64,000 bases of DNA from assembly GCA_041665345.1 (NCBI GenBank), contig JBAYJA010000001.1, forward strand, positions 73,206-137,205, in the 5' to 3' direction. The notes under the pieces were generated by a model. That model had not been told where the DNA came from and did no database searches. It saw only the letters and a list, made by a program, of their open reading frames with translations. Below are positions 5,801-59,361 of the stretch, one piece after another (position 1 is the stretch's first letter; each line of letters opens with the position of its first letter). The stretch is from Patescibacteria group bacterium (GTDB taxonomy: Bacteria; Patescibacteriota; Patescibacteriia; PEXW01). The position numbers were made by a program, and so were the translations under genes.

Positions 5801-5828
5801 GAAAAAGCGCTGACCTTTCAATCAGCGC
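5801..5828 (+). repeat. 28-bp direct repeat, copy 1; it forms a terminator hairpin AGCGCTGA-N8-TCAGCGCT.
   Basis: AAAAAGCGCTGACCTTTCAATCAGCGCT is repeated 27/28 at 6545..6572. Confidence 0.6.
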
Positions 5829-5842
5829 TAGGAATCGTAGAG

Positions 5843-6448
5843 TTACCACCGAGCAGTAATGAAATATGTCCCCGACTCATGGCTTTTTCTGTTTGCGTTT
5901 GGCACGCAGGGCGTGAGGAGCTGAATTTCGGTAGTGAGATTGAGGATTTTACAAACGGTGTAGATCTCAAAACTACGGAAATCCTTCAGCCAACTTGGAT
6001 TGAAAATGTGCTTTGCTCCCTGCTTCTCGTTCGGAGGGACTGAGTAGTCACTTGAGGTTAGCTCCATTACGAGCATTCGATCGATCCCGGCTTGTGCAAG
6101 GTACTGGACTATCCCAGGAAGTTTTTTTGCGAATTCATGAAACGGCATGAATCGATGTTGGCCAACTGCACGTTGTAGGTCGGTCACGCCATGATCAGTA
6201 TTTTCGCAACAGTGGAAACCTGGTTGCGGTAGAAAGTAGTGCTGCTGTTTGCAGCCCGGGCATTGGATTGTCAAACATTCGACAATGGACAATCCCACAC
6301 AGAAAGCCGAAGTGTGAACATCTTTTTGGTCGGTTTCCGTAATTTTGTACGTGTACCCAGATACCGGACAGTGGAAAGTTTTGCCCAGAAGTTCCTTAAA
6401 GTGTGTTGGGAATTGGTGTTTAAAGGTTTCGTCAACAATAGCACGCAT
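5843..6448 (-). CDS. Hypothetical Cys-rich protein, 201 aa, in a low-GC segment bounded by direct repeats.
   Basis: ORF with Cys motifs HCPV, CPGC and HCC. GC content is clearly lower than the flanks. No family recognised. Confidence 0.5.
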   Translation of the reverse strand: MRAIVDETFKHQFPTHFKELLGKTFHCPVSGYTYKITETDQKDVHTSAFCVGLSIVECLTIQCPGCKQQHYFLPQPGFHCCENTDHGVTDLQRAVGQHRFMPFHEFAKKLPGIVQYLAQAGIDRMLVMELTSSDYSVPPNEKQGAKHIFNPSWLKDFRSFEIYTVCKILNLTTEIQLLTPCVPNANRKSHESGTYFITARW

Positions 6449-6544
6449 GGAAACTCCTTTTTATTGCGTTTGTTCATGTACGTTTGTAGTTTCTTACCCT
6501 ATCAGCACAATTTCCACTCGTCAAGAAAGGCGCTTTGTGGATAA

Positions 6545-6572
6545 AAAAAGCGCCGACCTTTCAATCAGCGCT
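6545..6572 (+). repeat. 28-bp direct repeat, copy 2.
   Basis: AAAAAGCGCCGACCTTTCAATCAGCGCT; one mismatch to copy 1. Confidence 0.6.
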
Positions 6573-6978
6573 TATATATGGTTGCCCGTGACAAGGTCAT
6601 CAGTGAGAGGGGATTAGCCTCTCGTAGATGGGATCACCTCCTTTACCGTAATGACCTGTACGGATGCAATCGGCTCAAAAGAATGCTTTCGAATCACTAT
6701 AGCCTCCTGATGCTTCACACCCAGCACCTGGGGTTTTGAGGTTGCGTACCATGGTGTCGTTTTGGGTAACGAACCGTTTCGTCTTCAGTATAACGAAAAA
6801 ACCTACACCCAGGGAAGAACTGGGTCAAGGTTTTGGATGTCGATAGGAGTATGGAGGGCAGGTAGAGTTGGAAGGTTAGCAGAGATGCTAATTTTCCCCT
6901 CCTTTCCAAGGAGCCGTCTGCGGCGGGTGCGAGCGAGTGCAGCACCCCCAGGTTAGGGGTGGTTCTGCTCTCCTTCTT

Positions 6979-7065
6979 TGTCATTCTGAGCCTCACTGCA
7001 GTGGGGCGAAGAATCTCCGTGGTTGGTTACAGTCTTCAGAGATCCTTCGAAGACTCAGGATGACA
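6979..7065 (+). repeat. MITE-like element with 12-bp terminal inverted repeats TGTCATTCTGAG / CTCAGGATGACA.
   Basis: A second copy at 38282..38388 shares the terminal inverted repeats and a 25-nt right-end block GAGATYCTTCGAAGACTCAG. Confidence 0.4.
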
Positions 7066-7153
7066 AAAAGCACCAAAGATCTCTACAGCTTTATGGCTCT
7101 ACCCCGACGATCCCACTGCGGGATGTCGGGGCGGGTGGCTTTCTGGCTTCTTC

Positions 7154-25006: not shown

Positions 25007-25050
25007 ACCGGTGTGCCAGTCTTTTGTCCCACAAAGTTGTGAATTCAGAT

Positions 25051-25149
25051 GGCTCGCCAGCCGTAGCCCGAGAACAAACGTCGTGTCCTCCTACGCTCGG
25101 AAGCTTCGGAGGACAGCCTTCGCCCTCGTCAAAGCCCGAGGGCGAAGGC
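25051..25149 (-). repeat. Conserved module immediately 3' of tRNA-Leu, copy A: two strong hairpins plus GGCTNGCCAGCCGTAGC.
   Basis: Minus strand after the tRNA CCA end: hairpin AGCCTTCGCCCTCG...CGAGGGCGAAGGCT, then GTCCTCC...GGAGGAC, then GCTACGGCTGGCGAGCC. A near-identical module follows tRNA-Ser at 55656..55754. Confidence 0.5.
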
Positions 25150-25236
25150 TGGTGCCGGAGAGAGGACTTGAACCTCCATGGGATTGCTCCCACACGGCTC
25201 TGAACCGTGCGTGTATACCAATTTCACCACTCCGGC
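25150..25236 (-). tRNA. tRNA-Leu(CAG).
   Basis: Minus strand reads GCCGGAGTGGTGAAATTGGTATACACGCACGGTTCAGAGCCGTGTGGGAGCAATCCCATGGAGGTTCAAGTCCTCTCTCCGGCACCA. 7-bp acceptor stem, long variable arm, anticodon loop TTCAGAG, TTCAAGT T-loop, encoded CCA. Confidence 0.85.
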
Positions 25237-41088: not shown

Positions 41089-41141
41089 CGGTAAGGCTTT
41101 CACCGGAGGGGACGTGGGCTAGCTATCAGCCTACGCATCAC

Positions 41142-41173
41142 GGGCGATCCATTGTGGATCGCCCACTTTTTTT
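41142..41173 (+). terminator. Rho-independent terminator or attenuator.
   Basis: GGGCGATCCA-TTG-TGGATCGCCC followed by ACTTTTTTTG. Confidence 0.55.
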
Positions 41174-41236
41174 GACACTGGCGGGGGAAGAGCATAAGCT
41201 AGGAGCAAGAGAAAACCGTGCAACCAAGGAGGAAAA

Positions 41237-41461
41237 ATGGCCTGGCATGTTGATTCAGAGGTACAACAGGCACTCGTGAAGTTGAATGATGCGCTGTGCA
41301 CCTTTGAGCGAAATACTTGCAGGAGGTATACGTTGGTGCTCATTCCCCATGCAGCAGATGAGCTGTGCCATGTATCACTCAGCGGGAAACCGATTTCTGA
41401 GGATTCCCAGCTCAAACCAGACGAGGCAGTTGCTATTGCCATAGCAGAGCGTGGGCACTAA
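41237..41461 (+). CDS. Hypothetical protein, 74 aa.
   Basis: ORF with RBS AAGGAGGAAAA. Confidence 0.35.
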   Translation: MAWHVDSEVQQALVKLNDALCTFERNTCRRYTLVLIPHAADELCHVSLSGKPISEDSQLKPDEAVAIAIAERGH

Positions 41462-41573
41462 GTCAGCCAAAATACTAGTTTTTTCCAGGTCAGCAATGGC
41501 CTGGATTTTTTTGGCAAAATGAAAACCGCACCGATGGAAATCCATGGTGCGGGAAAATGCGTGTGAATGTACT

Positions 41574-42083
41574 TTACTTTTTGGAAGCTTTGCAGGCTTC
41601 CAAGGCCACTTTCAGACCAGGCAACTGCTCATGAATGAACGGCTGCGGCAGGTCATCAACATTGTAGAATGTGCCTTCATATGGCACCGATTCATCCAGC
41701 ACACCCAGGTGGATGTTCTGCTGAATCTTCCCACGGTTGCCGAAGTCAGTGAAGAGCTCACCGACCATAACAGGCTTGCCGATCAATGCCCCTTTGATTT
41801 CTGTCCTAATGATGCGGGCGATCGCATCATCAATTGATGTATCGGTTTCCCGATACGTCGTGCCTGGGTAGTGCCAGGCAGACGGCCAATCCGGGTCACT
41901 GTCTGGGCGTTGGCTCAGGAGCACCTCAATGCTCTCGCCGTTTTCTCTCAGCACTATCAGCTCATAGGCTGGGCTGGGCATCTTGTTACTCAACGCCCGA
42001 AAAACCAGATACGGTTTTGGGCTGGGCATGCGGTTCAGTAGTTCGATAATCAACCGACTATCGTCTTCTGTCCATTCGAACAT
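41574..42083 (-). CDS. Hypothetical protein, 169 aa, in a low-GC island.
   Basis: ORF only; no family recognised. Confidence 0.45.
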   Translation of the reverse strand: MFEWTEDDSRLIIELLNRMPSPKPYLVFRALSNKMPSPAYELIVLRENGESIEVLLSQRPDSDPDWPSAWHYPGTTYRETDTSIDDAIARIIRTEIKGALIGKPVMVGELFTDFGNRGKIQQNIHLGVLDESVPYEGTFYNVDDLPQPFIHEQLPGLKVALEACKASKK

Positions 42084-42361
42084 CGTACCTCCTAAGGTTT
42101 GGATTCAAGTTGTAAAGGTTTTACTGCATATTGACTGCACAGTATTGCATAGGACAAGCGTTCTGTCAAGGGTTTGTACTGTGAACACCTAGAGGAGGGA
42201 GCCTAGCTAATCAAATAACGTTTGCATGAAAATGGGTCTTTGGTCATACTCTGGATAGAAATAAACGTTGACCAGACCTCTGTTTCGATGCCACGAGGGC
42301 GTAAAACTGCCGCAAGGCGGTTACCACGACAGGCGATCCATTCTGGGTCGCCTGATTTTTT

Positions 42362-53326: not shown

Positions 53327-53552
53327 TCCACTTCCCTTCTATTGAAGAACGTTTTTTTGAGATGCTTTTAATGCGATACCATAGCACGCTCCCTCTGTGT
53401 GTCAAGTATCATTCTGGAATCACGTGATTTGATCATTCCATTACAAGCAGAAACAGGCATGGCATATTTTTTTCGACCTTGGAAAAGTCGCCCCGTCATC
53501 CGACGGGGCAAGCATATCCCGCGAAGCGCGACCTCATCAAGCGGGGATAGCT

Positions 53553-55367
53553 TTACTGTCCCGCTTCCAACTGGATAAAGAGTCTGGCCAGGCGGAGCTC
53601 TTCGTAGGTAAAATGTTCGCCCAAGATTTCCCGAACCGGGGAGAGTAACCAGCTCTTGGATTTTTTGAATGCTTGGGCAATTTCCTGGAGATCATTGGCA
53701 TGTGGCCGGAGGTACTCCACGTCGATATTTTTTCGAGTTTGAAGTAACTTCTCAATATGACCCACAATCGTGGTCGGGGACATACCCCGTCGACGAGCGA
53801 TTTCCGTAAGCGGTAATTTTTGGCGAAGCAATTCTTGCGTCGCGGTATAGGTTGTACCAAGCAGCGCAACCTTTGGTGTTCGAGCCAGAGCTGGTTCACT
53901 CCTGGCTTTTTCCGTTATATGCTTTTGCTTGGCGTATGCCTGAATGGCACGCACGAACGTCTCACCCAATTCTTGTAGCTTCCGCTGACCCACGCCGTAC
54001 ACGCGGGCAAAGCTCCCTAGACTTTGGGGGAAGTACGTCGCCATATCTTGGAGACTCTTGTCCCCAAAAATCACAAATGGTGGAACGCCATGTACATCGG
54101 CTAAACGTTTGCGCAGCGCCCGCAGTTCCTCGAAGAGTTCAGCATCATAGGCAGCTGGCGCATCAGCAACACCCTGGGTTTGTAGCGCAGGGACACATAG
54201 GTCGCAAGCGCCACAATTTTTGGTTGGCCAGCTTTCCCCAAAGTACTCCAGCAGGTATTTTCGGCGGCAGGTGTGCCCGTCGCAGTAGGCAACAACTTGT
54301 TGCAGTTTGTGCTCCACTTGTTGGCGTTCGGCAGGATCCGCAATTTGCTGGCTGAAGAAGCGGTGCTTCCGTGTGTCCCCGTAGGAGTAGTAGAGAATGC
54401 ACTGGCTGGGTAAACCGTCCCGCCCGGCGCGGCCAGTTTCCTGGTAGTACCCTTCAATGGACTTCGGCAGGTCGTAGTGGACAATCAACCGGACATCCGG
54501 TTTATCAATACCCATGCCAAAGGCAATGGTGGCAACGATGATCCGGACTTCATCGCGGATAAATTGTTCTTGGGTAGCCTGGCGAAGTGTCGGCTCTAAC
54601 CCAGCGTGGTAGGGCAAAGCCGAAAAACCCTGCTCGCGCAGATTCGCCGCCAGATTTTCGGTGTCCTTGCGGGAGAAGCAGTAAATAATCGCGCTGCCTG
54701 TGCTGTGGTGCAGCACGTCCACCAGTGCAGCAAAGGTTTGGTGCTTGGGGCGCACTAGGTAGGTGAGGTTGGGTCGGTTGAAGCTGGAGACAAAAAATTT
54801 TGGCGACCGCAGCGCCAGCTGTTTGATAATATCCTCGCGCACTCGTTCCGTGGCAGTAGCGGTTAAGGCAATGACGGGAACGTCTGGAAAATCTTGGCGC
54901 AGTTGGACTAAGTTTCGATAGTCAGGCCGGAAGTCATGCCCCCATTCAGAAATGCAGTGTGCTTCGTCCACAGCTATGTACGAAACAGCAACATCCTGTA
55001 ACCATTCCCGGAAGTAGGGGAGCGCCAGACGTTCGGGTGCCAGGTACAGAATTTTTAACCCCCCGGTCTCCACCTGGGTTTGCACCTGCCGAATCGTTTC
55101 AGCATCCAAAGTACTGTTAATAAACGCGGCGGCAATCCCATTCGCGCGCAGGGCGTCCACCTGGTCTTTCATCAACGAGATGAGCGGGGAAATAACCACA
55201 GTTACCCCATCCACCATGAGCGCGGGTAGCTGAAAACACAGCGACTTACCGCCACCAGTGGGCATGAGTACCAACGTATCCTGCTTTTGCAAAACCTGGG
55301 TGATGATTTCCTCCTGCAAGGGTCGGAACGCCTGGAACCCAAAATGTTTTTTCAATAATGCGTGCAT
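53553..55367 (-). CDS. recQ: ATP-dependent DNA helicase RecQ.
   Basis: N-terminus [33 protein letters not shown] box ([15 protein letters not shown]), a Zn-binding Cys cluster, and RQC and HRDC-like C-terminal domains. Confidence 0.9.
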
Positions 55368-55465
55368 AGTACAGACTTATGAATGAATCGCGAAATGAGT
55401 GTCTACTCGGTACAGAGAAGGGTAACGGATGGGTGGAAAGTTGGCAAGGCAGACGATTTTTCTTC

Positions 55466-55535
55466 GGGGCCCCCACAGATGTGGCGCGCAGTCCCGCTGC
55501 GGGACGAGCACGCGTCTGTGGGGTCAAGCGAGGCT
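55466..55535. repeat. Hairpin repeat element X, copy B.
   Basis: GGGGCCCCCACAGATGTGGCGCGCA-[GTCCCGCTGCGGGAC]-GAGCACGCGTCTGTGGGG-TCAAGCGAGGC. Confidence 0.5.
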
Positions 55536-55655
55536 TCGTGGGAACGGTGGAGCGGGATGCGCAAAAAGCGCGTCACGCGGAACTGTGACCACGAAACGAG
55601 CTGCCCTGAACCACTCCTCGCCCGACTCATCGGTTGCAGGGCATGAACCAGGACT

Positions 55656-55754
55656 GGCTTGCCAGCCGTAGCTCTTCCAACATACTCTATGTCCTCCTTC
55701 GCTAGGAGCTTCGGAGGACAGCCTTCGTCCTCAACAAAGCTTGAGAGCGAAGGC
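55656..55754 (-). repeat. Conserved module immediately 3' of tRNA-Ser, copy B.
   Basis: GGCTTGCCAGCCGTAGC, then hairpins GTCCTCC...GGAGGAC and AGCCTTCG...CGAAGGCT, in the same order and position as after tRNA-Leu. Confidence 0.5.
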
Positions 55755-55842
55755 TGGCGGAAGGGGCGAGATTCGAACTCGCGATACCTTTCGGTATACT
55801 CGCTTTCCAAGCGAGCGCACTCGGCCACTATGCGACCCTTCC
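55755..55842 (-). tRNA. tRNA-Ser(GGA).
   Basis: Minus strand reads GGAAGGGTCGCATAGTGGCCGAGTGCGCTCGCTTGGAAAGCGAGTATACCGAAAGGTATCGCGAGTTCGAATCTCGCCCCTTCCGCCA. Long variable arm, anticodon loop TTGGAAA, TTCGAAT T-loop, encoded CCA. Confidence 0.85.
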
Positions 55843-55903
55843 ACGAAATGCGAATGTAGCATACCTGGCGATTTGAGCAAGGGCAACTGCTATACTTTGG
55901 GCA

Positions 55904-55938
55904 TGCCACAATGCACCTGGCTAGGCGAAGATTCGCCT
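55904..55938 (+). pseudogene. Duplicated remnant of the tag 5' end (MPQCTWLGEDS vs MTNCTWPGEDS).
   Basis: ATGCCACAATGCACCTGGCTAGGCGAAGATTCGCC versus the tag start ATGACCAACTGCACCTGGCCAGGCGAAGATTCAC at 56574; about 30/35 identical. Confidence 0.4.
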
Positions 55939-55960
55939 TAACTCATGGTTAAAGGAGGTT

Positions 55961-55989
55961 TTGACGCCTGGGCATTCATATGATAAGGT
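55961..55989 (+). promoter_or_regulatory. Candidate promoter TTGACG-N17-TAAGGT for 56029..56517.
   Basis: Hexamers at 55961-55966 and 55984-55989. Confidence 0.35.
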
Positions 55990-56028
55990 GTCGAGCATTA
56001 ATAAGAAACCCGAATAGTAGGAGAAAAT

Positions 56029-56517
56029 ATGAAACCAACAATCGATGAAGTAAAAAAATTTTTCTTTGAAGCAAAGCTCCACGGTTGGGCAGCGGATGTT
56101 CCGTCGAGTTCTGTTCCGGGAAAGCCTGGGTACAAGCGAATAACATTCAAACGGGGCAGGTTCCTGTTGGTGGACGAGTGGTGTACGACTGGCCACAGCA
56201 GGATGAGCGCAGGAACGTCAACAATTTTCTGCGATAAGGAACCTGTATGGTTCATGTCGTATACCGGCTTCTACGAAAAAGTCGCCATACCCTTCCTCAA
56301 GCTCGCCCTCCTGCGGTCGTATCAGGCCAGAGAATTCAACGGAGGTCGTGGACCCAACGACTTCGAACAAAAGGGCATGGTCTATAGCAACGAGGTAGAT
56401 CTGGATGATTTCGAAAACTTCCAAGGTTGCGAGTCAGTCACCCGAAAAGGCCGCGGCCAAAAATTGCTAGGAGAGCATCATTACTACGGGGTAAGTTTAC
56501 TCCGTGAATCTGATTAA
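56029..56517 (+). CDS. Hypothetical protein, 162 aa, in a low-GC insert.
   Basis: RBS TAGGAGAAAATATG. Bounded by the tag-start duplication. Confidence 0.5.
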   Translation: MKPTIDEVKKFFFEAKLHGWAADVPSSSVPGKPGYKRITFKRGRFLLVDEWCTTGHSRMSAGTSTIFCDKEPVWFMSYTGFYEKVAIPFLKLALLRSYQAREFNGGRGPNDFEQKGMVYSNEVDLDDFENFQGCESVTRKGRGQKLLGEHHYYGVSLLRESD

Positions 56518-56528
56518 GAGTTTCCTAT

Positions 56529-56558
56529 AGCTGCCGGATAACCTGGCAGCTATTTTTT
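56529..56558 (+). terminator. Rho-independent terminator.
   Basis: AGCTGCC-GGATAACCT-GGCAGCT followed by ATTTTTTCG. Confidence 0.6.
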
Positions 56559-56573
56559 CGCTATACTTGATGT

Positions 56574-57140
56574 ATGACCAACTGCACCTGGCCAGGCGAA
56601 GATTCACTGATGATTGCGTACCACAACAAAGAGTGGGGTGTGCCGTTGTGGAATGAGCGGAAGCTGTTTGAGTTCATGGTATTGGATGCCTTCCAGGCTG
56701 GTTTGAGTTGGCGGACCGTGCTGCACAAACGGAAGAACTTTGCACGGGCTTTTGATAACTTTGATCCAAAGAAAATCGCGAAGTACGCCCCGGCGAAAAT
56801 CAACAAGCTCTTGAAAGACGTGGGGATTATCCGGAATCGTGCAAAGGTCAACGGTACAGTAAAAAACGCAAAGGCATTTCTGGCACTGGAAAGAGCGCAG
56901 GGGAGTGTGGCGGAGTATTTATGGCAATTTACCGGCGGAAAACCGAAAGTGAATCATTGGAAAACCACCAAACAAATTCCAGCTCGGAGTAAAGAGTCTG
57001 ATGCAATGAGCGAAGCTTTGAAGAAGGCGGGTTTCACTTTTGTTGGTTCAACTATTTGCTACGCGTTCATGCAGGCTGCCGGGATGGTGAATGATCACCT
57101 GGTGGAGTGTCCACGGTGGAGGGAAGTAAAAAAATTGTGA
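56574..57140 (+). CDS. tag: DNA-3-methyladenine glycosylase I.
   Basis: CTWPGEDSLMIAYHNKEWGVP and FEFMVLDAFQAGLSWRTVLHKR; HhH-GPD superfamily with zinc-site Cys/His residues. Confidence 0.85.
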   Translation: MTNCTWPGEDSLMIAYHNKEWGVPLWNERKLFEFMVLDAFQAGLSWRTVLHKRKNFARAFDNFDPKKIAKYAPAKINKLLKDVGIIRNRAKVNGTVKNAKAFLALERAQGSVAEYLWQFTGGKPKVNHWKTTKQIPARSKESDAMSEALKKAGFTFVGSTICYAFMQAAGMVNDHLVECPRWREVKKL

Positions 57141-57208: not shown

Positions 57209-57730
57209 ATGTCTGAAAAAATATTATTGAAAGCCACGCTGGTGTTCCCTGTTCGAGACGACCAAGTTTTACTGGCGAAAAAGGTACGGAAAATTGGTGC
57301 CGGCTGCTTGAACGGTTATGGTGGCGGGGTGGAACCGGGTGACGCAACGCTCATTGATGCGGCTTTGCGGGAATTTACTCAAGAAACAGGCGGGCTTATG
57401 GCCAAGGCTGCGGATCTAGTCAAAGTAGCTGTGGTCGATTTTCACAATCGAACCGTTGAGGGAATTCGTTTCACGTGTCGTGTTCACGTCTATCTCCTCT
57501 ACGGCTTGCAAGGTCAGGCAAAGACTACTGAGGAAATGGCTGACCCAGCCTGGTTTTCTAAAAATGCCTTGCCGTTAGGTAAGCTTATGCCCGCCGATCC
57601 TTACTGGTTGCCCCGAATACTAGCCGGGGAATTCCTCTACGTAAAGGCTTGGTATGGGCCGGCGCAAAAGACTTTGGAAAAAGCAGTACAAGTCACTCCC
57701 GTGACGCCCAACGAACTTGACCGTCTGTAG
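57209..57730 (+). CDS. NUDIX hydrolase, MutT-like.
   Basis: Nudix box GGGVEPGDATLIDAALREFTQETGG (REUxEExG). Confidence 0.75.
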   Translation: MSEKILLKATLVFPVRDDQVLLAKKVRKIGAGCLNGYGGGVEPGDATLIDAALREFTQETGGLMAKAADLVKVAVVDFHNRTVEGIRFTCRVHVYLLYGLQGQAKTTEEMADPAWFSKNALPLGKLMPADPYWLPRILAGEFLYVKAWYGPAQKTLEKAVQVTPVTPNELDRL

Positions 57731-57831
57731 GCTTCCAAGCTTGCCGACGGTTTTTATCAACCCGACTTTTTACAAACCACGGGCAGGGAGAGTAATCTGC
57801 CGTAGAATGTTTAGGTGAGGGAAAGTACAGA

Positions 57832-57855
57832 AAAAAACGACCCGTGGGGGTCGTT
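57832..57855 (-). terminator. Rho-independent terminator for 57863..58099.
   Basis: Minus strand reads ACGACCCCCACGGGTCGT followed by TTTTTTTCTG. Confidence 0.55.
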
Positions 57856-59050: not shown

Positions 59051-59107
59051 GTTTTCATAGGTAAGGAAAAAGCGGCGTCTTCGGACGTCGTTTTTTTGCT
59101 CTTCCCC

Positions 59108-59210
59108 GGGGTCCCCATGAATGTGGCGCGGACCCTGAGTGAGCCCCGCAATCCTGCGGGATAAACTCCACGAATCGAAGGGGAGCACGCGTTCATGGGG
59201 TCAAGCGAGC
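59108..59210. repeat. Hairpin repeat element X, copy C; the outer stem carries three compensatory base-pair changes.
   Basis: GGGGTCCCCATGAATGTGGCGCGG-[long variable insert]-GAGCACGCGTTCATGGGG-TCAAGCGAGCC. ACAGA/TCTGT in copies A and B becomes ATGAA/TTCAT here. Confidence 0.5.
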
Positions 59211-59361
59211 CTGCCCCGTACCGGACCCCGAGCGGAGTCGAGGGGGACTGGTGCGGGGGCTTCGAACGGCCTCCGGCCCGGAGGGAACCCGTAGTGGAGC
59301 CGCGAATGCGGGTACACGGAGGGTGGAGTTCGAAATGAGCGTCTGCTACACTAACCAAGCT

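Follow-up and report, generated by a model that had tools for sequence, protein, structure and literature searches.

In the small genome (1.08 Mb) of a CPR/Patescibacteria bacterium, tag, the gene for DNA-3-methyladenine glycosylase I, is preceded by a second copy of its own first codons, and another gene lies between the two copies. How this arrangement arose, and how tag survived it, is the question raised by this locus, which we analysed within a 64-kb stretch of DNA (hereafter the window). A sequence-only reading had proposed that a single-gene cassette entered tag at its start, duplicating about 35 bp of the target, and, together with a companion case elsewhere in the window, that an unrecognised mechanism was at work. 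Comparison with relatives bears out both the insertion and the duplicated target, but the duplication extends over ~49 bp and includes the -10 box. As for the mechanism, it can no longer be called unrecognised, since the structure fits the already described insertion with long target duplication (ILTD; Nobusato 2000; Furuta et al. 2010, PMC2853133).

The ancestral order at this locus is tRNA-Ser on the minus strand, a divergent promoter region of ~60 bp and tag. In the window, tRNA-Ser(GGA) is found at 55755-55842 on the minus strand (ARAGORN, Rfam); it adjoins the segment, as had been noted, with its 5′ end facing tag, and is 100% identical to that of L088, a relative with an empty site. Native back-to-back promoters can be read from the sequence at 55858-55896: for tRNA-Ser, on the minus strand, a -10 box TATGCT (55858-55863) and a -35 box TTGCCC (55881-55886), and for tag, on the plus strand, an extended -10 box TGcTATACT (55888-55896) located 6 nt upstream of the ATG. 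Because this box is so close to the ATG, the tag mRNA is presumably leaderless. The motif TGCTATACT-N6-ATG is common to L088, L101, L095, the L090 stub and L100, and the spacer between the tRNA and the ATG is 56/60 (93%) identical to that of L088, whereas the tag DNA is only 81% identical; we infer that the region works as divergent promoters. The vicinity of the tRNA reflects this compact promoter region and not an integration into the tRNA. The tag gene itself (56574-57140, plus strand; Pfam Adenine_glyco, E=2e-76, residues 6-181) is intact and encodes 188 aa, and its closest Tag homologues, 87-89% identical, are those of the empty-site relatives. Replacement of the whole gene by a foreign tag was considered and is without support: the window Tag clusters with those of L088 and L101, which also match it in synteny, and the level of DNA divergence (81%) matches that of the neighbouring genes.

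The direct repeat joins 55889-55937 to 56560-56608, with 38/49 identical positions by our own count, and a repeat search returned 46 nt of it at 80% identity (55889-55934 versus 56560-56605). The recurrence of the tag 5′ end had been described as about 30/35 identical from 55904; it is real and unique in the window, but over the 35 coding nucleotides we count 28/35 identical positions, and the upstream ATG is at 55903. Its core, TGCACCTGGCYAGGCGAAGATTC, has exactly 2 occurrences in the 64-kb window, with 0 expected in shuffles, and the local alignment of the two copies outscores 2000/2000 shuffles. Relative to tag, the repeat spans -14 to +35 and contains the -10 box, the start codon and 11 codons; its 14 nt 5′ of the ATG take in the -10 box GCTATACT. 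Convergence on a common promoter motif was excluded as the source of the -10 box likeness, this octamer being rare (only 3 occurrences in 64 kb). Assemblies from ENA, JGI and Logan contain the same arrangement (99.95-100% identity), and since these three independent assemblies agree it is not an assembly artefact.

The two copies differ in their fate. The upstream one (55889-55937, plus strand) holds the native -10 box, the ATG (55903) and 11 codons. As anticipated, it encodes a short tag-like start followed by a stop, and is now a dead stub ORF of 12 codons, MPQCTWLGEDSP* (55903-55941). Its similarity to tag stops at ~codon 11-12, and a longer divergent tag paralogue, which would tell against an insertion, was not seen. 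Its orthologous sequence in L088 and L101 is the 5′ end of an intact tag and, given that intact tag starts at the place of the stub in L088, L101 and L095, the upstream copy is the native 5′ end. The downstream copy (56560-56608, plus strand) provides a -10 box GCTATACT, without an upstream TG, the ATG (56574) and codons 1-11 of the functional tag. A perfect palindrome, AGGCGAA-GA-TTCGCCT, can be read at the stub/cassette junction (55923-55938) and was partly recovered in an inverted-repeat listing; the downstream copy has AGGCGAAGATTCACTG there, and the palindrome shows no conservation at the empty sites. Gene callers put the start of these apparently leaderless tag genes wrongly at Met13, and also report a spurious 168-aa ORF spanning the tRNA-Ser gene and the stub.

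Divergence between the window copies is unevenly distributed. Indeed, 9/11 positions differ in the spacer from the -10 box to the ATG and in codons 2-3, versus 0/7 third positions of codons 4-10 (Fisher p=0.002), and a 24-nt block with one mismatch (23/24) lies beside the putative crossover, identity collapsing further away. By our own count, the cassette-proximal copy has 8-9/23 mismatches to L088 and the other copy 3/23. Non-uniform divergence together with a cassette-adjacent copy that is more diverged from the relatives is what an element-borne replacement 5′ end would predict. A molecular-clock case for regarding the downstream copy as foreign was dropped as unsafe, as the flank of the stub overlaps constrained promoters. 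Two derived states, a third-position A in the Pro/Leu codon and TCN as codon 11, are shared by both copies and missing from L088, L101, L090 and L095.

Between the copies lies a cassette of ~620 bp (55938-56559, plus strand) composed of a promoter-like element, a Shine-Dalgarno sequence, a gene and a terminator. The promoter-like element, TTGACG (55961-55966) with an N17 spacer and TGaTAAGGT (55981-55989), had been taken for a TTGACG-N17-TAAGGT promoter; a TG does precede its -10 box, but it was not called by the scan and the -10 box matches at 3/6 positions. A Shine-Dalgarno GGAG is present at 56020-56023. The 162-aa gene (56029-56517, plus strand), hypothetical in the sequence-only reading, is real: its product belongs to DUF5680 (Pfam PF18931, E=4e-9) and has 906 homologues at E<=1e-3. 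The terminator expected between the copies was likewise found by scan (56527-56553); its 11-bp stem is followed by TTTTTT (56527-56559). The low GC content attributed to the gene is marginal, with 47.3% for the cassette versus 48.7% for tag and 52.8% for the window. What DUF5680 does is not apparent from our searches. While its AF2 model has a pLDDT of 97, comparison with the PDB gave no fold neighbour (best TM ~0.3) and no nuclease or methylase fold match; its sequence had no match in the PDB, in NCBIfam, PADLOC and PHROGs, or in viral contigs and phage and plasmid collections. No names are attached to the members of its cluster, and nothing relevant was found in the literature. We found no terminal inverted repeats of the cassette. 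By Pfam, no integrase, transposase or Cas1 was detected in 20 of the 58 window ORFs of at least 90 aa, and no mobility gene in the cassette or in the genes within ~5 kb on each side. The precomputed domains of related loci, including L090, L084 and L097, contain no integrase, transposase or Cas1 either.

Comparing the tRNA-Ser-tag region among relatives, as the sequence-only reading had proposed, uncovered the empty site in three of them. In L088, L101 and L095, tRNA-Ser and the same promoter are followed by one intact tag, and the cassette is missing at the orthologous position. A DNA pattern across tRNA-Ser and the promoter matched 2 loci in metagenome contigs, both informative; in a Tag search of genome contigs, the matches listed were all at most 65% identical and synteny was not found. 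In L089, L090 and L096, the same tag 5′ position is occupied by a HigB/HigA toxin-antitoxin pair, bounded by nearly the same duplicated segment: in the two events, the left edge falls at -14/-15 and the right edge 0-7 nt beyond the Gly-Glu-Asp codons. The two occupied lineages sit in different clades of the Tag tree, each among unoccupied relatives, and are thus most simply explained by independent events. The locus is extremely fluid in relatives, where panD, Nramp, a 188-aa gene and an inverted tRNA are also found. As a control, 80 diverse tag loci were scanned for copies of the 5′ or 3′ end; none had a convincing 5′ stub, L018 (from Ignavibacteria) had a genuine terminator duplication, and L004 gave a tandem-repeat false positive.

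Altogether, a ~620-bp promoter-gene-terminator cassette carrying DUF5680 was inserted at ~codon 12 of tag in this lineage. The upstream copy, still on its native extended -10 promoter, probably reads into the cassette, and the downstream copy, behind the cassette terminator, is predicted to regenerate the tag promoter and start, so that tag survives.

Similar events are found at other targets. The companion case had been described as a similar insertion, which is supported by L103, where the site is empty and holds a single terminator copy: in the window, a terminator hairpin, AAAAAGCGCYGACCTTTCAATCAGCGCT, is duplicated with 27/28 identical positions (5802-5829 and 6545-6572; event A, 5802-6572), and the copies enclose an orphan gene of 201 aa on the minus strand (5843-6448). 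In a further case (event C, 41140-42361), a terminator hairpin is duplicated at 41140-41172 and 42329-42361 with 82% identity, the changes preserving the stem, around a 74-aa and a 169-aa gene; for this event no empty site was found. Outside the window, a distant Parcubacterium (L084) carries DUF5680 and a 121-aa gene between two copies of the ychF 5′ end (1/2000 shuffles), L097 a GIY-YIG gene between two copies of the 5′ half of tRNA-Ser, and the Ignavibacteria locus L018 the duplicated terminator mentioned above. The duplicated terminators of events A and C and the break in the anticodon stem-loop of L097 are inverted repeats whose spacers measure 4-8 nt. Across events, duplications range from 21 to ~50 nt and involve at least five unrelated target sequences. 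The boundaries of the tag cassette, of events A and C and of L090 share no motifs or terminal inverted repeats, and a recombination motif common to the tag cassette and event A, which the sequence-only reading had proposed to look for, was not found. A nudix gene (57209-57730) downstream of tag is followed by what is probably a decayed tag end (57802-57854, plus strand), made of the last 8-11 codons (57802-57836) and the native tag terminator (57837-57854), as aligned by MAFFT to the tag end of L088. The terminator match beats 2000/2000 shuffles; the match of the codons is weak, with ~17/23 identical positions counted by eye and no significance within the window. This arrangement suggests that nudix may be a second insertion, at the tag 3′ end.

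Among known systems, the closest architecture is that of ILTD, described by Nobusato et al. (2000, Gene 259:99, as cited in PMC2853133) and known from genome comparisons since then. In ILTD, cassettes devoid of mobility genes and smaller than 20 kb are flanked by target duplications of 30 to over 400 bp, often across a start or stop codon; the direct repeats (>30 bp, e.g. 46 bp in H. influenzae) vary in length and correspond to a single copy where a relative has the site empty, and the target gene stays intact (PMC2853133). The published cargo consists of restriction-modification systems, and DNA cleavage by the restriction enzymes carried was proposed as the cause (PMC2853133). At tag, the repeats are 49 nt long (38/49 identical), both align to the single copy of L088, L101 and L095, and the 0.62-kb insert is free of mobile-element genes, as are ~5 kb of flanks and the 20/58 ORFs scanned. 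The cargo differs: no restriction and modification genes are present, DUF5680 stands alone, and in the related events its place is taken by HigBA, GIY-YIG, orphan genes and possibly nudix. The tag locus is further distinguished from published ILTD by its host, a CPR genome of ~1 Mb, by a duplication that takes in a whole minimal promoter and by the independent use of the same site twice, and the repeats described here are older (78-96% identical versus 95-100%).

Other systems share part of these features. For IS1630/IS30-family elements, inverted repeats of 19-26 bp serve as targets and become duplicated on insertion (Calcutt et al. 1999, as cited in PMC2853133); in events A and C, too, the duplicated targets are hairpins or resemble terminators, and their length varies. 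Nonetheless, these elements have a transposase and defined ends, and the window cases have none. A DNA transposon or IS was rejected for the tag cassette given the lack of terminal inverted repeats and transposase and a duplication length varying from 21 to ~50 nt across events. We also rejected an integron gene cassette, as the sole hairpin is a terminator with a T-run and the ORFs scanned contain no integrase. Phage morons are promoter-gene-terminator units inserted between resident genes and are not defined by target duplications; the tag cassette resembles them in having its own promoter, one gene and its own terminator, but it lacks a prophage context.

We class the event as ILTD. Our best explanation, to which we give roughly even chances, is that it arose by repair or template switching without sequence specificity, followed by selection. 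Foreign DNA would have been captured at a chromosomal break, and the duplication would stem from fill-in of long staggered ends or, alternatively, from a template switch back upstream during repair or replication (MMBIR-like); a recombinase encoded by the cassette would not be needed. Selection would retain only those events whose duplication regenerates a functional gene or terminator end. Once present, the direct repeats could permit precise loss, amplification and spread via homologous recombination. This explanation draws on the empty sites, to which the flank of the stub corresponds, on the recurrence of the same architecture with other cargo and targets, on the apparent independence of the two tag events in the Tag tree, and on the absence of integrase, transposase, Cas1 and terminal inverted repeats from what was searched; moreover, varied duplication lengths at no fewer than five unrelated targets are hard to reconcile with one site-specific enzyme. 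Against it count the enzymology, which is unexplained in the published ILTD cases too, the donor locus of the cassette, of which none was found, and the uneven divergence of the two window copies, with the cassette-adjacent one further from the relatives. In addition, the nearly identical edges of the two tag events mean that random breakpoints would need selection or a local fragile structure to fix both.

These edges, reached in two lineages with different cargo, lead to a possible though less favoured alternative, in which a small circular cassette with its own copy of the tag promoter and first codons would have integrated in a site-specific (or Campbell-type) manner, through a tyrosine or serine recombinase acting in trans or since lost, with a crossover near codons 10-12. 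The 5′ end of the gene would then have been replaced as by SXT (at prfC) or the dusA islands, and the cassette would be an integrase-less remnant or a cis-mobilisable (CIME-like) element. As in those elements, the target 5′ end is displaced as a stub, and the element-side copy, with its predicted promoter, start and first codons, restores what was lost and diverges away from the crossover. [quoted passage not shown] The identity peak beside the putative crossover, the retention of the -10 box and ATG, and the greater distance of the cassette-proximal copy from relatives are in keeping with this alternative, as are the junction palindrome and the likeness of the inverted repeats of A, C and L097 to recombinase core sites. 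However, SXT and the dusA islands measure 10-100 kb and have a tyrosine integrase, an excision factor and a defined short core, while the tag cassette is 0.6 kb with one gene and no recombinase found. A recombinase gene is absent in or near all 6-7 events examined, their cargo amounts to merely 0.3-1.2 kb, and targets as unrelated as tag, ychF, tRNA-Ser and three terminators would need several specificities. Furthermore, the window and L090 cassettes share no arm-type motifs beside the repeats, and the palindrome is not conserved in empty sites. The shared edges would also be explained, without site specificity, if a single ancient duplication of the tag 5′ end had served as a neutral landing pad with cargo turnover, the empty relatives having lost the insert via the repeats. 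Deletion between 49-bp direct repeats is easy and the locus is fluid, but we consider this improbable: with occupied lineages in different Tag clades, it takes at least four losses versus two gains, and the derived states common to both window copies point to a lineage-specific duplication, barring gene conversion. As for the absence of any insertion, through chance similarity, an assembly chimera or a decayed tag paralogue remnant, only the shortness of the repeat speaks for it, and we give it next to no credence in view of the shuffles, the concordant assemblies, the end of similarity at codon 11-12 and a stub located exactly at the start of the intact gene in three relatives, whose empty sites contradict it.

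Returning to ILTD, what is new here is the occurrence of this architecture with cargo other than restriction-modification systems (DUF5680, HigBA, GIY-YIG) and in ultra-small CPR genomes, and the use, twice independently, of the ~49-bp promoter-plus-start segment of one gene. The tag locus is a naturally replicated hotspot with occupied and empty alleles, and as such provides material for testing the site specificity of breakpoints. We also put forward, as a speculative and rather doubtful proposal, that a trans-acting system of CPR/Patescibacteria, and possibly of other bacteria, inserts small promoter-gene-terminator cassettes at the boundaries of transcription units and regenerates the interrupted end. 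Its targets would be the segment from the -10 box to ~+35 of leaderless genes, the 5′ halves of tRNAs and terminator hairpins. If such a system exists, cassettes without mobility genes would repeatedly home to the same ~49-bp segment of tag, and they would constitute a new class of cis-mobilisable gene cassette that supplies the missing mechanism of ILTD.

The start of tag (56574-57140), which encodes DNA-3-methyladenine glycosylase I, is present twice in the window, which is part of a Patescibacteria (CPR) genome. ENA, JGI and Logan assemblies all contain the locus (99.95-100% identity), which is therefore not an assembly artefact. Upstream lie recQ (53553-55367, minus strand), a GC-rich non-coding stretch and tRNA-Ser(GGA) (55755-55842, minus strand); nudix (57209-57730) lies downstream. 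A repeat search returned a 46-nt direct repeat with 80% identity (55889-55934 and 56560-56605), which by our own count reaches 38/49 positions (55889-55937 and 56560-56608). The repeat proposed by the sequence-only reading is thus real but larger than claimed, and the upstream ATG lies at 55903, one base off the start proposed at 55904. A 23-nt core is found in both copies and nowhere else in the 64 kb, where chance predicts none, and the local alignment of the two copies is better than 2000/2000 shuffles. The repeat, whose left edge lies 14 nt 5′ of the ATG, contains GCTATACT, an octamer with only three occurrences in the window. The upstream ORF reads MPQCTWLGEDSP before a stop, and similarity between the copies ends at codon 11-12, which rules out a long decayed tag paralogue. 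A 168-aa ORF of public assemblies (55403-55909, minus strand), which overlaps the tRNA-Ser gene and this stub, is almost certainly spurious.

Between the copies lie, in order, a promoter-like site, a Shine-Dalgarno sequence, a 162-aa gene (56029-56517) and a strong terminator. The predicted gene and terminator were both recovered, the former as a Pfam DUF5680 member. The promoter read as TTGACG-N17-TAAGGT is TG-extended but otherwise weak, and the supposed low GC content is marginal (47.3% for the cassette vs 48.7% for tag itself).

Comparison of the tRNA-Ser-tag region across relatives revealed the empty site expected of an insertion into the tag start with target duplication. In L088 (Logan SRR28495930; Tag identity 88-89%, depending on the measure), tRNA-Ser is identical, the spacer matches at 56/60 positions and one intact tag immediately follows the promoter; L101 and L095 (Tag 87% and 73% identical) have the same arrangement. 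In blastn, L088 aligns to 55754-55932 and then skips to 56560-57135. Therefore, the upstream copy is the native tag 5′ end, and the ~620 bp between the copies were inserted in the window lineage. The insertion event is real and well supported. Over 43000-64000, synteny with L088 runs from PPDK through tRNA-Ser, tag, a 78-aa gene and DUF1761 to dnaG, broken by several window-specific blocks at ~48.1-52.5 kb, 53.0-55.5 kb (recQ) and 59.4-61.8 kb (a glycosyl hydrolase); gene turnover is rapid here.

The same position is occupied in a separate lineage (L089, L090 and L096; Tag identity 80%; many independent contigs). There, the shared promoter leads into a stub (ATGACTCGTTGTCCCTGGCCCGGCGAAGAT...). 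A terminator comes next, then oppositely oriented genes for a HigB-like (Gp49) protein and an HTH_3 antitoxin, and finally an intact tag that opens at a new TGCTAagaT-N6-ATG. The duplicated segment begins at -15 vs -14 in the window, and ends at the GAT of Gly-Glu-Asp plus 0-7 nt vs plus 4 nt. On the Tag tree, the window groups with L088 and L101, both empty; L090 falls in a different clade, along with the unoccupied L097, L098 and L100. Two gains explain this more parsimoniously than one gain and at least four losses.

Other targets are affected as well. In L084, a distant Parcubacterium, a 41%-identical DUF5680 gene and a 121-aa gene lie between an intact ychF 5′ end and a stub, MMQIGMVRTQLH, closed by a stop; the copies share a 33-nt match (76%, 1/2000 shuffles) beginning at a -10-like hexamer. 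A GIY-YIG gene (Pfam E=1e-14) in L097 separates intact tRNA-Ser from a partial copy of the tRNA 5′ half; this remnant breaks off in the anticodon loop and matches perfectly over 21 nt. Nested rearrangements adjoin this tRNA-Ser (1776-2660): beyond the remnant, a tag-type promoter is broken after GGGCAACTGC and followed by a 66-aa gene and terminator, then by GCTATACT-N6-ATG driving panD. Within the window, a terminator hairpin is duplicated (27/28 identical) around a 201-aa orphan gene at 5802-6572; L103, which comes from the sample that also gave L088, has one terminator copy and lacks the gene, which bears out the proposal that this case is also an insertion. At 41140-42361, two orphan genes lie between copies of another terminator, which differ by substitutions that preserve the stem; this case yielded no empty site. 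At the other end of tag, a decayed copy of its final codons (57802-57836) and then the native tag terminator (57837-57854) come after nudix, while in L088 the terminator directly follows tag. This suggests a further insertion, of nudix into the tag 3′ end (57209-57854), the coding part of the match being weak. In L100 and L102, too, nudix neighbours tag. As a control, 80 tag loci of diverse phyla were scanned; a convincing 5′ stub was seen in none of them. One, an Ignavibacteria MAG locus (L018, 6560-7300), has an 84-aa GIY-YIG-like gene twice in tandem with a tag terminator copy behind each, which looks like cassette amplification through flanking repeats.

Several other small elements were noted. 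A GC-rich, hairpin-rich module of ~105-150 nt (55603-55754 and 25050-25152, minus-strand sense; 82% identical) begins directly after the encoded CCA of tRNA-Ser and tRNA-Leu. After tRNA-Ser it is present in L101 and absent in L088, and thus behaves like a small insertion element targeting tRNA 3′ ends. A dispersed ~45-nt hairpin element, CTTCGCGGGATATGCTTGCCCCGTCG.ATGACGGGGCGAC, lies after the recQ stop codon (53480-53531, minus strand), at the tRNA-Ser 5′ end in L101 (173-223) with an 8-13-nt target duplication, and in L097 (~2200-2260). A GC-rich 30-nt repeat (55506-55535 and 59183-59212, 87% identical) lies inside non-coding GC-rich blocks (~55400-55600 and ~59100-59330), parts of both matching L088. 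Downstream of ychF, ~580 nt (6573-7153), partly conserved in L103, contain no ORF of at least 100 aa and no Rfam match, and carry GAGAGGGGATTAGCCTCTC and GGATCACCTCCTT, which resembles the 16S rRNA 3′ end.

Integrase, transposase and Cas1 genes were sought in the cassette, in the ~5 kb to each side of it, among 20 further window ORFs (58 ORFs of at least 90 aa in total) and among the genes annotated next to the related events; none was found. Terminal inverted repeats are absent from the cassette, and the proposed comparison of cassette boundaries yielded no common motif. The DUF5680 protein has 906 homologues (E<=1e-3, among 1.8 billion representatives) and a confident structure model (pLDDT 97). 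The PDB contains no structural neighbour of this model, and the protein has no match in defence, phage, plasmid or NCBIfam libraries; none of these comparisons gave a sign of a nuclease or recombinase, and we infer that the protein is not self-mobile. The remaining cargo consists of orphan genes, a toxin-antitoxin pair or small GIY-YIG nucleases. Rather than an unrecognised mechanism, the insertion belongs to a known kind, insertion with long target duplication (ILTD; Furuta 2010, PMC2853133; Nobusato 2000), itself mechanistically unexplained. Described cases carry restriction-modification systems, and the DNA breaks these make were proposed as the cause (PMC2853133), whereas the window cassette has no such cargo. 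It also lacks the integrase that defines 5′-end-restoring integrative elements (SXT/prfC, dusA islands).

We thus showed an insertion whose target duplication regenerated promoter and start, which recurred, and which encodes no recombinase in cis. As to how the duplication arose, we infer, at roughly even odds, that break-repair or template switching, not site-specific, would generate it and that selection for gene-end regeneration would filter the resulting insertions. This origin is favoured because targets are many and unrelated, duplication lengths vary and recombinases are consistently absent. Site-specific integration of a cassette bearing its own tag 5′ end is the main alternative and a real, if lesser, possibility: the duplication edges are nearly identical in two independent events, divergence changes sharply (9/11 vs 0/7 free sites, p=0.002) and a palindrome lies at the junction. 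A single ancient duplication with cargo turnover since is improbable, being less parsimonious on the Tag tree and in conflict with derived states common to both window copies.

In the native tag copy, TGcTATACT is followed by 6 nt and the ATG, without a Shine-Dalgarno sequence. With such promoter spacing, transcription would be expected to begin at the A of the ATG, giving a leaderless mRNA. This module also precedes tag in L088, L101 and L095, the stub in L090, and panD in L100. Gene finders place the start of several such Tag proteins at Met13, consistent with the absent ribosome-binding site, and several public Tag proteins are mis-started there. Cys4 of E. coli Tag is a zinc ligand. Here, the first codons encode a conserved Cys-x-Trp and the Pfam domain begins at residue 6, hence the first 11 codons are needed. 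After the insertion, the native TG-extended promoter would transcribe the stub and probably DUF5680. The cassette terminator would isolate tag, which would rely on a -10 box copy without the TG extension, so its expression is probably reduced. The direct repeats would permit precise reversion. The main value of the tag locus is as a naturally replicated hotspot.
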